From an uncultured Acidobacteriota bacterium (GTDB lineage: Bacteria > Acidobacteriota > Terriglobia > Terriglobales > Acidobacteriaceae): a stretch of 64,000 nucleotides of DNA. The stretch lies in NCBI GenBank assembly GCA_963713675.1, contig CAVQMV010000013.1, positions 2,375-66,374 of the forward strand, read 5' to 3'. The position numbers and the translations under genes are program-made. Positions 10,204-38,833 of this stretch are shown here, piece by piece (position 1 is the first letter of the stretch; each line of letters opens with the position of its first letter). A model generated the notes under the pieces. The model had not been told where the DNA came from. It ran no database searches and saw nothing but the letters and a program-made list of their open reading frames with translations.

Positions 10204-13225
<3,022 letters not shown>

Positions 13226-13260
13226 GAACAGGGAATGGGGAGTAGCCAATAGGGAATAGA

Positions 13261-13299
13261 ACAAGGGGCGTGCTCAGTGCGAGCACGCCCCTTGTTTGT
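13261..13299 (+). terminator. intrinsic terminator between convergent secA and cpaE-like genes
   Basis: acaaggggcgtgctc-agtgc-gagcacgccccttgt hairpin followed by T-rich tract. Confidence 0.75.
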
Positions 13300-17568: not shown

Positions 17569-17933
17569 AGAAGAACCAAAACGGCAAAGCCAGGCTCAGC
17601 GTGCTCCGAACATCCCGAAAGAACCCGCGCGCCCACCCCTCCATGCGACGCCAGCCTAAGAACCGCAGCTGCGCGGAGGCATCTTTTTCCCACTTGAAAG
17701 AAGCAGACGTACGTTCCGTATTGGCGGAAAACGGCGACCCGCCGTCCTTCTCTTCGTGGGAGTGCTCTTATCTGAAAAGATGCCTGGAGCCGATGTGGGG
17801 TTGCACCTATATTCTGCGTGGATTGTTGTGGCGCGTCAAGGGGCAAGGTAGGGAACAGGGAGTAGGGAATAGCCGATAGGGAAAAGCTGATAGCGAGCGG
17901 TCATTAGGGCGCTGTCTTTCTACTCCCTATTCC

Positions 17934-19831: not shown

Positions 19832-19873
19832 AAAAACAGCGAGTCATCGAGTCGGCGCATCCCGGCCGATGCA

Positions 19874-20134
19874 TTCGTGCTGTCCCACCCTAAAGTCCGC
19901 CGCGCGGCGGCGAACTTTAGGATGGGGCACCCGGCCGGGATGCACGGGCGGGTGATGCATTGATAAGGCAGCGGAGTTGACGGAGTTGGAACGCCCCCCG
20001 CGCGATGCGTTCGTGCTATCCCACCCTAAAGCTCGCCGCGGCGCGGCGAACTTTAGGATGGGGCACCCGGCATAACGGCGAACTCCAGGACGGTGCACCC
20101 GGCATAACGGCGAACTCCAGGACGGTGCACCCGG
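19874..20134. repeat. BIME-like mosaic of REP-like palindromes
   Basis: Two full copies (19874-19932, 20010-20068), two tandem 32-bp degenerate right halves (20071-20102, 20103-20134) and a 23-bp duplicate of the upstream gene end. Confidence 0.8.
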
Positions 20135-21663: not shown

Positions 21664-21857
21664 AGAACCGCCTGAAGGTACTGCGCGCGGAGCGGGACTG
21701 GTCGCAGGCGGACCTGGCGGTGCGGCTGGAAGTTTCGCGGCAATGTGTCAACGCGATCGAGACGGGGAAGTTCGATCCCAGCTTGCCGCTGGCGTTCAAG
21801 CTGGCGCGGCTGTTTGGGATGAGGATTGAGGAGATTTTCGAGGACAGTGATCAGTGA
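21660..21857 (+). CDS. XRE/Cro-family HTH transcriptional regulator
   Basis: MKNRLKVLRAERDWSQADLA..LEVSRQ.VNAIETGKFDPSLPLAFKLARLF. Confidence 0.92.
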   Translation: MKNRLKVLRAERDWSQADLAVRLEVSRQCVNAIETGKFDPSLPLAFKLARLFGMRIEEIFEDSDQ

Positions 21858-22084
21858 TCAGTGGTCAGTGAGGGTTAGTGGTCAGTGATCAGTGATCAGT
21901 GGCCAGTGGATCAGTGGTCACGTGGTCAGAGAGCGATTGTGCGATCCACCCATATCGTTCGCCCGGGGCGAACGATAATGGATGGGGCACCCGACAAAAA
22001 TCAGAGCCGCAGGTCCTTCGACTCGTCCCGGCGCGCCGGGACTCGCTCAGGGTGACATCAGATTTTTACCGCTCAGGATGACAG
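21846..22084. repeat. heptamer tandem array (TCAGTGA/TCAGTGG) plus two REP-like elements
   Basis: Heptamers 21846-21928; GGGGCACCC-family palindrome 21944-21992; GGTCCTTCGACTCG..CTCGCTCAGG(G/A)TGACA-type element 22009-22084. Confidence 0.75.
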
Positions 22085-30179: not shown

Positions 30180-30268
30180 GCACAGGTGGCCGAGCGGTTA
30201 ATGGCAGCAGACTGTAAATCTGCCGCTCCTTGCGAGCTACGGAGGTTCGAATCCTCCCCTGTGCACCA
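30180..30268 (+). tRNA. tRNA-Tyr(GTA)
   Basis: GCACAGG/CCTGTGC acceptor stem, CTGTAAA loop, long variable arm, CCA. Confidence 0.97.
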
Positions 30269-30403
30269 GAGATGCAGGGAACAGGGATTAGGGAACAGGG
30301 AACAGTTGGTGTTGTGGAAAGTGAAGAGCTGAGCGGCTTTGGCCGGCACGGAACAAACTGAGAACTGTGAACTACGAACTGGGAACTGGGTTTGAGAGCG
30401 GCG

Positions 30404-33524: not shown

Positions 33525-33674
33525 ATGCGGGAAATTATCACGTTGGAATGCACGCAGTGCAAGGAGCGCAATTACTCGACTACGAAGAACAAGAAGACCG
33601 TCACCGGCCGTCTTGAGCTGAAGAAGTTCTGTAATCGCTGCCGCAAGCACCAGGTGCATAAGGAAGCGAAGTAA
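33525..33674 (+). CDS. rpmG: 50S ribosomal protein L33 (zinc-binding form)
   Basis: Manual translation [49 protein letters not shown]; below the ORF-track size cutoff. Confidence 0.97.
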
Positions 33675-33772
33675 AAGAACAGGCAATAGGGAATAGGGAG
33701 TAGGGAATAGAAAACGGGGCGTCGGTGCTCAGGAATCTACTCCCTACTGGCTACTTCCTATTCCCTGCATTC

Positions 33773-35698: not shown

Positions 35699-37561
35699 TT
35701 ACGTCCCGGACGCTTCCATGCCCAGGATTTCGATTTCGAGGCCGCCGAAGTCGGGGTGGTCGTTTTCGCGGATACGATAGGCGAGGTCGATGCGGCTGCC
35801 CTGAGTGAGGCGGAGTTCCATGGCTCGTTCGGCCAGGTTCCAGCCGACGGCGCGAATGGAGCTGATGGGCGCGGGGCTGTTGGACGGACCGGCGGTGGGC
35901 TCATTGTCGATCAGGTTTCGTGCTATCCCTGGTCCCCAAATCGGGACCAGGGGCACCCCCAGCACGGCGAGTGACGGTGCGGGGTCCTGCGCGAGGTCGA
36001 GCGCGAGATGGCGGGCCTTCATGATGCGCGGCGCTTTGAGCAGGCGCGCGTTGCGCGCGAGGAAGAGCGGCTCGGCGTTGCCGTGGCCGAGCGGCTCGAG
36101 TTTCTTGAGCCATCCGGCGAGCACAGGCGTGATGCGGTCGAGCGGCAGCTCGGCGTGAATATGCAGAACGCGCTCGGGCTCGCGCGCGGCGAGGTGCTGC
36201 TCGGCATACGCGCGCAGGCGGCGCTTGAGTTCGGGAAGATTTTCCGCGGGGAGCGCGAAGCCCACGGCGAAGGCGTGGCCGCCGAAACGGGTGAAGAGAT
36301 CGGCGCAGGATTCGATGGCGGCGAGGAGGACAAATCCGTCGACGGAGCGGCCGGAGCCGTGAGCGATTTTGCCGTCGGGGCCATCTTCAATGCTGACGAC
36401 GATGGCCGGCTTGGCGGTGCGCTCGACGACGCGTGAGGCGAGGATGCCAATGACGCCGCGATGCCAGCCGTCGCCGTCGATGACGAGAAGGCGGTCGGCA
36501 GCGATTTCTGAATCGGACGCGAGGCGGGCTTCGATGATGGCAAGGGCGGCGGCTTCCACGTCGCGGCGTTCGCGGTTGAGCCGCTCTAATTTGTTTGCCA
36601 GCTCAGTGGCGCGGTGCGAATCGCGCGTGGAGAACAGCTCAACGACTTCGGAGGCGATGTCCATGCGGCCGGCGGCGTTGATGCGCGGCGCGAGGCGGAA
36701 GGCGACGTCGAAGCTGGTGAGCTGCTTGGCTGCGGGATCGAGCGCGGCGGCGGCAAAGAGCGCGCGGAGACCGGCGCCCATGGGACGGCGCAGCTCCTTC
36801 AGGCCAATCGCCGCGATGGTGCGATTTTCGCCGCGTAGCGGAACGGCGTCGGCGATGGTGGCGATGGCTGCCATTTTGAGAAAGCTGGGCAGGGTTTTTT
36901 CGCGCGCCCGCTCCGGCTCGCGGTGCTCGAGCAACGCTTGCGCCAGCTTGAGCGCGATGGCCGCGCCGCATAACGATTTTTCGGGGTACGGGCATCCCGG
37001 TTGGTTCGGATTCAGGATGGCGAGGGCGGCGGGAAGCGCATCGCCGGCGGCGGGCAAGTGATGGTCGGTGACGATTAAATCCAGACCAAGCCGCCGCGCA
37101 GTTTCCGCTTCGGCAAAGGCGCGCATGCCGGTGTCGACAGTGACGACGACGCGAACGCCTTCGGCGTGCGCCGCTTCCAGCACGCTCGATTGCATGCCGT
37201 AGCCTTCGCGGAGACGGTGCGGCACGTGGAAACGCACTTCTCCTCCGAGCATCTCGATGGCGATCTTGAGCAGGACGACGGCGACAGTGCCGTCCACGTC
37301 GTAGTCGCCGTAGAGTAGGATCGGCTCGCGCGCCGCGATGGCGCGTTCCAGACGGTCGACGGCCGCGGCCATGCCCAGCATGAGGAAGGGGTCGTGGAGA
37401 TGCGCGGGCTCGGGATTGAAGAAGGCGAAGGCTTCGGTTGGCTGGGTGATGCCGCGAGCGACTAGCAGCTCGGCGAGAACGAGGGGCAGGCGGGCTTCGT
37501 GAGCGAGAGCGGCGGATTCGTCAGGATGCAGCTCGGCGACGATCCAACGCTGGCGCGGCAT
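35699..37561 (-). CDS. recJ: single-stranded-DNA-specific exonuclease RecJ
   Basis: YGDYDVDG, PHRLREGYG, TVDTG, TDHH, APRINAAGR, GGHAFAVG, PLGHGNAEP; start moved to ATG 37561 (alternative 37624). Confidence 0.96.
   Translation of the reverse strand: MPRQRWIVAELHPDESAALAHEARLPLVLAELLVARGITQPTEAFAFFNPEPAHLHDPFLMLGMAAAVDRLERAIAAREPILLYGDYDVDGTVAVVLLKIAIEMLGGEVRFHVPHRLREGYGMQSSVLEAAHAEGVRVVVTVDTGMRAFAEAETARRLGLDLIVTDHHLPAAGDALPAALAILNPNQPGCPYPEKSLCGAAIALKLAQALLEHREPERAREKTLPSFLKMAAIATIADAVPLRGENRTIAAIGLKELRRPMGAGLRALFAAAALDPAAKQLTSFDVAFRLAPRINAAGRMDIASEVVELFSTRDSHRATELANKLERLNRERRDVEAAALAIIEARLASDSEIAADRLLVIDGDGWHRGVIGILASRVVERTAKPAIVVSIEDGPDGKIAHGSGRSVDGFVLLAAIESCADLFTRFGGHAFAVGFALPAENLPELKRRLRAYAEQHLAAREPERVLHIHAELPLDRITPVLAGWLKKLEPLGHGNAEPLFLARNARLLKAPRIMKARHLALDLAQDPAPSLAVLGVPLVPIWGPGIARNLIDNEPTAGPSNSPAPISSIRAVGWNLAERAMELRLTQGSRIDLAYRIRENDHPDFGGLEIEILGMEASGT
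35916..35959. repeat. REP-like palindrome inside the recJ coding sequence
   Basis: tttcgtgctatcc-ctggtccc-caaatc-gggaccag-gggcaccc shares both flanks with the intergenic copies. Confidence 0.75.
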
Positions 37562-37629
37562 TGCGCGTTGCGGCAATACAGGTTGTGCCGGGGCGGGCCC
37601 ATTTTCGGCGCGGGACGTGCTCACGCGCC

Positions 37630-38109: not shown

Positions 38110-38205
38110 TGTTAGACACCCATTCTCGCAGATGGGGCCGGGGTGGGCATACGGGTTGTGGAAAGCCGCAAGAGCGCGCTCTGACCGAAAGCCTGCAGGT
38201 TGAGG

Positions 38206-38430
38206 TTTGTGCTCTCCCACATCTCAAAATCGAGATGTGGGGCAACCGCGTTATGTGCTGAGCTGAGGGAGGCGAGTCGAGGTTCGTGTCATCCCACCTT
38301 AACCGATTCGCGGAACACGCGAATCGGCGAAGATGGGGCACCCATTTTTGGTGTTGAGTTGAGAGACGTGGGTTGGGGTTTGTGCTCTCCCACATCTCAT
38401 CCGCCGCGGCGGACGAGATGTGGGGCACCC
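38206..38430. repeat. three REP-like palindromes (GGGGCACCC family)
   Basis: Copies at 38206-38247, 38283-38343 and 38379-38430, with conserved ends and variable hairpin cores. Confidence 0.8.
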
Positions 38431-38443
38431 GCGTTAGTCTGGA

Positions 38444-38833
38444 ATGAGCCGCACCGGAATTGATTGGACTGAGGAGGTTTTCCGCTTGCCCCCATTTGAA
38501 CGACACGTCTTTGTCTGTCACAACACTCGCCCTGCCGATGCGCCGCGACCCTCTTGCACACGCGACGGAACGAGCGCTCTGCACGCGCGCTTGCAGCAGC
38601 TTTCGCGCGAGGCCGGGCTGGGCGCGAAGGTGCGCATCAACAAGTCCGGCTGCCTGGACCAGTGCGAGCATGGGCCCACGGTAGTGGTGTATCCCGATGC
38701 GGTTTGGTACGGGCACGTGCAGCCGGAGGACGCGGAAGAGATTGTGACGGAGCACCTGGTGGGCGGGCGGCCGGTGGAGCGGCTGCGCCTTGCCGACGCG
38801 TGCGTGAATACCAAAAGCTGCCCGCATCGGTGA
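38444..38833 (+). CDS. thioredoxin-like [2Fe-2S] ferredoxin
   Basis: HVFVC..PSC, RINKSGCLDQCEHGP.VVVYP..VWY. Confidence 0.92.
   Translation: MSRTGIDWTEEVFRLPPFERHVFVCHNTRPADAPRPSCTRDGTSALHARLQQLSREAGLGAKVRINKSGCLDQCEHGPTVVVYPDAVWYGHVQPEDAEEIVTEHLVGGRPVERLRLADACVNTKSCPHR

Follow-up and report, generated by a model that had tools for sequence, protein, structure and literature searches.

The window analysed here, a stretch of 64,000 nucleotides (nt) from an uncultured soil acidobacterium of the genus Terracidiphilus, carries a recJ gene whose reading frame contains one unit of a repeat family resembling repetitive extragenic palindromes (REPs) (Table 1). Public gene calls use the 620-residue form of RecJ. 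The recJ open reading frame (ORF) is open further, to a GTG at 37624 (35699-37624), which yields the 641-residue form P0001; a residue of the AlphaFold model corresponds to the P0001 residue minus 21. The product matches TIGR00644 (recJ) with 481 bits (cut-off 397), contains the Pfam domains DHH (PF01368), DHHA1 (PF02272) and RecJ_OB (PF17768), and has the catalytic motifs DHH and GGH at residues 187-189 and 448-450, respectively. In Foldseek comparisons the RecJ model aligned at full length with the solved RecJ structures 8y30, 5f55 and 2zxo, over more than 620 columns. The DHH and DHHA1 domains, the motifs and the RecJ OB domain together mark the protein as a bacterial single-stranded-DNA-specific 5'-3' exonuclease. 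It is the single recJ match in the whole genome (5.08 Mb in 32 contigs, 91% complete; G000 below). Judged from its sequence, recJ is intact apart from the insert and shows no sign of decay.

To score the repeat in recJ, we used a covariance model, R1, built from 47 other copies in the genome, with the RecJ copy excluded. R1 matched the RecJ copy with 60.4 bits (E = 6e-20) over model positions 1-72 of 72. By this alignment, the recJ insert genuinely belongs to the same family as the intergenic repeats. The 71-nt unit is in frame with recJ, contains no stop codon and contributes 25 residues (549-573), of which 14 (556-569) derive from the 38-nt hairpin. An earlier note on this DNA had proposed a REP-like palindrome in RecJ that has the same ends as the intergenic repeats and is translated in frame. 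Both proposals hold: the plus-strand sequence at 35916-35959 is GTTTCGTGCTATCCCTGGTCCCCAAATCGGGACCAGGGGCACCC, with the ends TCGTGCTATCCC at 35918-35929 and GGGGCACCC at 35950-35958, and LGVPLVPIWGPGIARN forms residues 555-570 of the intact ORF. As RNA, the hairpin folds to about -33 kcal/mol, whichever strand is taken. The recJ copy is a singleton.

Table 1. Coordinates of the recJ locus, of repeat copies and of repeat-associated genes. Plain positions refer to the window; C and L numbers denote contigs and loci, G000 the source genome.
Feature	Position	Strand	Details
recJ coding sequence	35699..37561	-	620 residues from ATG at 37561 (ORF list)
Hypervariable loop of the RecJ OB domain	35858..35983	-	residues 548-589 (42 residues), between strands HLALDLAQD and IRAVGW
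Full REP-like repeat unit in recJ	35908..35978	+	antisense to recJ; encodes residues 549-573 (APSLAVLGVPLVPIWGPGIARNLID); cmsearch with R1
Hairpin core of the unit	35920..35957	+	GTGC-TAT-CCCTGGTCCC-CAAATC-GGGACCAGGG-GCAC-C; 14 paired positions; encodes GVPLVPIWGPGIAR; pattern match
Three intergenic copies upstream of recJ	38197-38269, 38274-38365, 38370-38450	+	cmsearch 73.7, 40.6 and 54.3 bits
Two intergenic copies cited in the earlier note	19865-19954, 20001-20089	+	long-stem subfamily with the same ends
mnmE (tRNA modification GTPase) repeat	C19:101872-101909 (L199:2544-2615), G000	-	60.6 bits
mtaB/miaB-like radical-SAM methylthiotransferase gene	C20:15255-16832 (L224), G000		two in-frame repeat segments, L224:2659-2733 and C20:15982-16029
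Transposase gene L117	C17:375451-376095, G000		flanking repeat copies in direct orientation
Transposase gene L116	C29:152560-153087, G000		flanking repeat copies in inverted orientation

The unit falls within a variable part of the OB domain. The Pfam RecJ_OB match ends exactly at residue 548, at profile position 61 of 107. The AlphaFold model has a mean predicted local distance difference test score (pLDDT) of 75.5, and its sole long segment with pLDDT below 50, model residues 530-565 (P0001 551-586), holds the insert. Strands E519-525 and E569-573 of the C-terminal beta-barrel lie to either side of it. Since the low pLDDT falls between two OB strands, the repeat-encoded residues are predicted to form a disordered excursion from the OB domain. 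Modelling of the loop had been suggested as a check; it predicts that the insert is part of a disordered loop joining two strands.

The repeat family is abundant in this genome. The pattern GTGCTNTCCC-N(10-40)-GGGGCACC occurred 4 times in the window, compared with none in 100 shuffles. Genome-wide, a looser regular expression returned 92 to 140 copies, and R1 gave at least 147 matches, spread over many contigs. Copies share the conserved foot GGTTC-GTGC-TnT-CCC ... GGG-GCAC-CCC (family foot GTGCTNTCCC ... GGGGCACC; consensus foot GGTTCGTGCTnTCCC ... GGGGCACCCC) and a conserved 3' flank, ccttttCGTGCTGgGTTGAg. The unit measures about 72 nt and includes a hairpin of 37-57 nt. Several subfamilies can be told apart by the inner stem-loop, which stays base-paired in each, and they share a single foot. 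In the 47-copy alignment, 99.2% of cells were paired and 5 of the 14 pairs were changed on both sides; the covariation score of the stem was reached in 0 of 500 shuffles. Of the genomes searched, 23 of 24 from the same genus contain the family, as against none of 16 from a sister family in the same order. Rfam at gathering thresholds returned tRNAs only in the window, which rules out the repeat as a curated RNA family.

Clusters of the repeat mostly consist of units in head-to-tail order on a single strand, spaced about every 76 nt or about every 143 nt; examples are C21:87526-87953 and C11:6037-6360 in the source genome and 38197-38450 in the window. The window copies all lie on the plus strand, and long same-strand blocks occur along contigs, which hints at a strand or transcription bias. 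Note that unrelated heptamer-like tracts (GGGAACA, GGGAATA, CAGTGAT) also recur in the window, at 30266-30307, 33671-33722, 13224-13271, 17840-17898 and 21837-21908. These are intergenic and lie around tRNA genes and the tuf-secE-nusG cluster.

Empty sites and loop length in other RecJ proteins

We compared the locus with 189 RecJ loci of other species, 29 of them taken from related genomes, 80 from one-genome-per-species contigs and 80 from metagenome contigs. The insert peptide was absent from all 189, and no repeat was found inside recJ in these loci by peptide, regular expression or covariance model. Repeats near these genes lay in flanking intergenic DNA only, often in the region upstream of recJ. 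The close relatives L031, L032, L119, L121 and L130 have repeats in the upstream region equivalent to that of the three window copies. Because the relatives do carry the repeat family, their repeat-free recJ is, by comparison of these loci, a true empty state at the species level. The alignment of RecJ orthologues proposed in the earlier note thus gives the expected empty site, and the insert is not widespread in other species.

The length of the loop requires a more careful reading. Among about 190 orthologues it ranges from 2 to about 40 residues. It is a turn of 2-4 residues in the sister family and other families; within Terracidiphilus it spans the full range of 2 to about 40 residues, with unrelated Pro/Ala/Ser-rich sequence. 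The claim that RecJ has gained about 40 extra residues in a normally short loop therefore stands against other families and fails within the genus. Since the loop is already long across the genus, most of these residues represent ordinary loop expansion. Equally long orthologue loops of unrelated DNA had been named in the earlier note as evidence that would speak against an insertion. Such loops do exist in part: orthologue loops are nearly as long and of unrelated DNA, so that the whole loop expansion is not due to the repeat. No decayed repeats were detected inside the RecJ loops of other species with the covariance model or the regular expression, and the idea that the whole loop is repeat-derived thus found no support.

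What the repeat itself added can be read from the nearest species (85-88% amino acid identity), relative to which the focal loop is longer by 13 residues, or 39 nt. There is clean DNA homology on either side of a 77-nt segment, where the relatives have about 38 nt, thus indicating an insertion in which some of the earlier loop was lost or overwritten. By this alignment, the repeat accounts for about 13 net (25 gross) residues of the RecJ loop. Pairwise DNA alignment with ten near relatives revealed no target-site duplication or unambiguous insertion boundaries. As to features of miniature inverted-repeat transposable elements, the element at recJ is one hairpin with no visible duplication, and its boundaries cannot be fixed at this divergence.

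The same species was recovered in independent assemblies. When a collection of 5.8 billion proteins was searched with RecJ residues 535-600, three proteins came out in one cluster at 90% identity. One is the protein of the window itself (NCBI/ENA, contig of 79.6 kb); the second, of full length, is encoded on a 30.5-kb contig of Joint Genome Institute (JGI) sample 3300079084, and the third is a fragment from a 2-kb contig of JGI sample 3300074274. The JGI recJ gene has 99.46% DNA identity to that of the window, with 10 of 1863 positions differing (4 nonsynonymous, 6 synonymous), and the same neighbours, rplK, nusG, secE and tuf. The repeat unit is identical, base for base, in the window and the two JGI contigs. 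The presence of the identical insert in independent assemblies therefore indicates that at least two strains carry it and that it is no assembly artefact. In the sequences compared, the insert is restricted to one species-level lineage.

These data bear on whether the insert is translated at all. That recJ is a decaying pseudogene, or the insert an artefact of assembly, is hardly credible. The incompleteness of the source assembly (91%, 32 contigs) would allow for such an error, and another repeat-bearing ORF (RACo-like, on C9) looks frameshifted. However, the recJ ORF is intact, with both motifs and three domains detected, and no second recJ exists in the genome; three assemblies from different samples agree on the insert, and 6 of the 10 between-strain differences in recJ are synonymous. 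The reading we prefer, and in which we have good confidence, is that a REP-like unit came to lie, in this lineage only and probably neutrally, in an OB-domain loop of RecJ that tolerates it.

Repeat copies in other genes

A scan of coding sequences for the repeat, likewise suggested earlier, revealed in-frame copies in mnmE and in an mtaB-like gene as well. The regular-expression copies were screened for long spanning ORFs and then for codon-position GC. Coding-like sequence on both sides was present in 3 of the 140 copies, in recJ, mnmE and a membrane-protein gene. About 3-5 of the 140 copies are intragenic, the mtaB-like case being backed by orthologues. Long stop-to-stop ORFs running over repeats (upstream of ftsY; antisense or array-generated) were rejected on the basis of protein content and codon-position GC.

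In mnmE, the repeat lies in frame between the NKSDL motif and STSALTGEGI of the G domain. Two tandem copies (61.1 and 27.2 bits) occupy the same site in the relative G017 (L217:2362-2519); in other mnmE orthologues the site holds unrelated sequence of about the same length. In the mtaB-like gene, the first copy is a covariance-model match in the inter-domain linker after the UPF0004 domain, and the second, defined by regular expression, gives SWSPTHSAEKSGMDGAR. A WSPTH..MDGA insert is found at this second site in G003 (L225) and G004 (L226), and more than 20 other orthologues, including closer relatives, are without it. Such a distribution suggests either that the site is a hot spot or that the insert was gained and later lost.

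The peptides are unlike among the genes: GVPLVPIWGPGIAR in RecJ, GAPGLDFETGESS in MnmE and SWSPTHSAEKSGMDGAR in the MtaB-like protein. The repeat differs in frame and orientation between the three genes, so there is no common peptide. Manual reading of the consensus unit found 5 of the 6 frames open or nearly so. The variety of frames and their openness fit a passive filter, in which a copy persists when it is inserted in frame and free of stops at a tolerant site.

This variety also bears on the possibility that the RecJ insert has been exapted. The hydrophobic peptide LAVLGVPLVPIWGPGIA would then make a new RecJ contact, or the hairpin, as mRNA or DNA, would act in regulation or bind a repeat-recognising protein. 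We regard this as very unlikely. The hairpin is strong (about -33 kcal/mol), and genes for replication and repair reportedly often contain intragenic REPs (PMC3733652). The unit is also identical in two strains with 10 other differences in recJ; however, 10 differences in 1863 nt predict only about 0.4 in 71 nt, which renders the identity uninformative. Moreover, about 189 other RecJ proteins manage without the insert, the insert segment is modelled as disordered, and the unrelated peptides encoded by in-frame copies elsewhere argue that no common product is selected. From the sequence evidence, the insert is most likely a neutral passenger, translated as about 25 extra RecJ residues, and not an adaptation.

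A broader proposal is that REP-like repeats are a recurrent engine of loop growth in Terracidiphilus housekeeping proteins. We consider this possible but on balance doubtful. It would draw on the filling of the same coding sites in different species: the mnmE G domain with one copy here and two in G017, and one mtaB-like site in G000, G003 and G004, not in closer relatives. The long Pro/Ala/Ser-rich loops of the genus, including the RecJ loop of 2 to 40 residues, could then be decayed older repeat insertions. If recurrent loop growth were true, insertion would have to be targeted to particular coding hairpins or motifs, or else repeats would have to be gained time and again at tolerant sites and decay there; such growth would also be in line with the excess of intragenic REPs that is reported for DNA-repair genes. 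Should the recurrence at the mnmE and mtaB-like sites be the outcome of targeting, Terracidiphilus would offer a well-suited natural setting in which to study protein length variation made by mobile hairpins.

Several further observations concern coding copies. One candidate (C19:70544-70592 in G000) is located in a gene for a multi-pass membrane protein, which has no Pfam match and a coding-like codon composition on both sides. Another (C9:12866-12921 in G000) lies between the ferredoxin-like and ASKHA parts of the RACo-like gene, whose frame switches back and forth between genuine and nonsense sequence, as if it were frameshifted or a pseudogene. The mtaB-like orthologues L231 (G009) and L237 (G001) have other inserts in the first variable linker. 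Their peptides, among them HGFSRAEE and GFSPYIRPEQMRGASA, resemble products of a different acidobacterial repeat family, and more than one family may be colonising coding loops.

Transposase genes and routes into recJ

The genome contains 8 Y1_Tnp (PF01797) matches, an unusually high number for genes of the REP-associated tyrosine transposase (RAYT) type. The products of L116 and L117 pass the NCBIfam model NF047646 (REP-associated tyrosine transposase) with 95.7 and 86.5 bits, respectively, against a cut-off of 80, and both genes are flanked by copies of the repeat. The repeat-flanked transposase genes support a REP/RAYT-type system, with departures that are considered below.

In the mechanism we propose, a unit of about 71 nt of the Terracidiphilus REP-like family would have lodged antisense in the DNA for a disordered, fast-evolving loop on the surface of RecJ. 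It would have arrived by the family's own spreading mechanism, the likeliest route being single-strand transposition by a RAYT, an HUH enzyme of the IS200/IS605-like kind; the RAYT genes examined here have copies of this repeat on either side. With some 38 nt of the earlier loop lost or overwritten, the net gain would be 39 nt. The copy would have been kept only because it passed the filter: its length change is divisible by three, its frame is open and its site is insertion-tolerant.

Alternatively, the copy could have come by ectopic recombination, gene conversion or template switching, overwriting a patch of the loop without transposition. Three potential donors lie 2.2 kb away, upstream of recJ; they belong to other stem subfamilies, however, and the closest stem is on another contig (C2:21981). 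That about 77 nt stand for about 38 nt, with no clean addition and no visible target-site duplication, would be expected from such an exchange, and the mnmE repeat, being of the same length as the unrelated segment of the orthologues, is likewise replacement-like. Nevertheless, indels are frequent in the loop, and an insertion with a later, unrelated deletion would account for the data just as well. On its right flank, the recJ copy has CCCAGCACG, the inverse of the consensus CGTGCTGGG, a further point in favour of recombination. Conversion, on the other hand, needs flanking homology, and none was seen. Overall, we judge recombination to be a rather unlikely origin of the recJ copy.

Some features weigh against lodging by transposition of a REP-like unit, the origin we favour. 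The flanks of the recJ unit fit the consensus weakly. The foot has no GTAG or CGTC tag of the described REP superfamilies, the arrays are mostly head-to-tail and not inverted doublets, and L117, one of the two RAYT genes examined, has direct flanking copies. Given the missing tags, the head-to-tail arrays and the direct flanks of L117, mobilisation of the repeat by a RAYT is something that we infer. Furthermore, no same-species empty-site allele was found, as scans of genomes and metagenome contigs gave other species with at most 88% amino acid identity. Without such an allele, one cannot read exactly where the inserted DNA begins and ends, whether a target site was duplicated, or whether replacement took place instead of an insertion and a later deletion.

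Relation to known repeat systems

Selfish palindromic repeats that are translated in frame have been described before, above all from Rickettsia and also from a few other phyla. The repeat family, the host phylum and the target gene are new; the phenomenon is already known. Di Nocera, De Gregorio and Rocco (2013, BMC Genomics 14:522; PMC3733652) reported intragenic GTAG/CGTC REPs in several phyla, many of them in replication and repair genes. Acidobacteria are covered in that work by terminal inverted repeat (TIR)-associated tyrosine transposases only, with no REPs in genes, and recJ is not among the genes listed for intragenic REPs. In the literature searched, we found no paper on REPs inside acidobacterial genes. 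The earlier note's statement that such inserts are not described for this lineage agrees with this result; its framing by Rickettsia alone is too narrow, as the phenomenon is wider (PMC3733652).

The present case extends the in-frame translation of selfish palindromic repeats to Acidobacteriota, a free-living soil phylum, and to a family without a GTAG/CGTC tag, and recJ joins the repair genes with such inserts. There are also consequences for annotation. The repeats inflate loops and break profile matches, as with the Pfam RecJ_OB match that ends at the insert, and they yield many spurious 'hypothetical proteins' in acidobacterial annotations.

Like the REP/REPIN-RAYT systems of Pseudomonas and Enterobacteria (Nunvar 2010, PMC2817692; Bertels and Rainey 2011, PMC3116915), the Terracidiphilus family is a high-copy imperfect palindrome with a conserved foot, a stem that is variable but compensated, repeat-flanked RAYT genes, and dispersed, mainly intergenic copies. 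Unlike in those systems, there are 8 Y1_Tnp matches and not one, REPINs are not the main arrangement, and several stem subfamilies share one foot.

The intragenic REPs of Di Nocera and colleagues resemble the copies described here in being short palindromes of a high-copy, mostly intergenic family that are in frame and add roughly 10-30 residues. They differ in their GTAG/CGTC tags, whereas the Terracidiphilus foot, TTCGTGCTNTCCC ... GGGGCACCC, has no tag, the host is acidobacterial, and head-to-tail arrays have a 76-nt period.

The parallel with Rickettsia palindromic elements (RPEs; Ogata et al. 2000, as given in PMC10969869 and PMC3733652), drawn in the earlier note, is borne out: the recJ unit is in frame, present in this species only and predicted to lie in a disordered loop, and the mnmE and mtaB-like copies strengthen the comparison. 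RPEs, too, are selfish palindromes found in frame in housekeeping genes and absent from orthologues, translated as an extra peptide and placed where the fold tolerates it (PMC10969869, PMC3733652). The first-described RPEs, however, are about 150 bp long, with a conserved peptide per family (PMC10969869), whereas the Terracidiphilus unit is about 72 nt long and has no common peptide. RPE hosts are reduced and intracellular, in contrast to the free-living soil bacterium with its 5-Mb genome that hosts the Terracidiphilus repeat. Thus, the recJ case shares with RPEs an in-frame insertion that orthologues lack, in a conserved and apparently functional gene, and the element differs from RPEs in having neither a conserved peptide nor a length of 100-150 bp.

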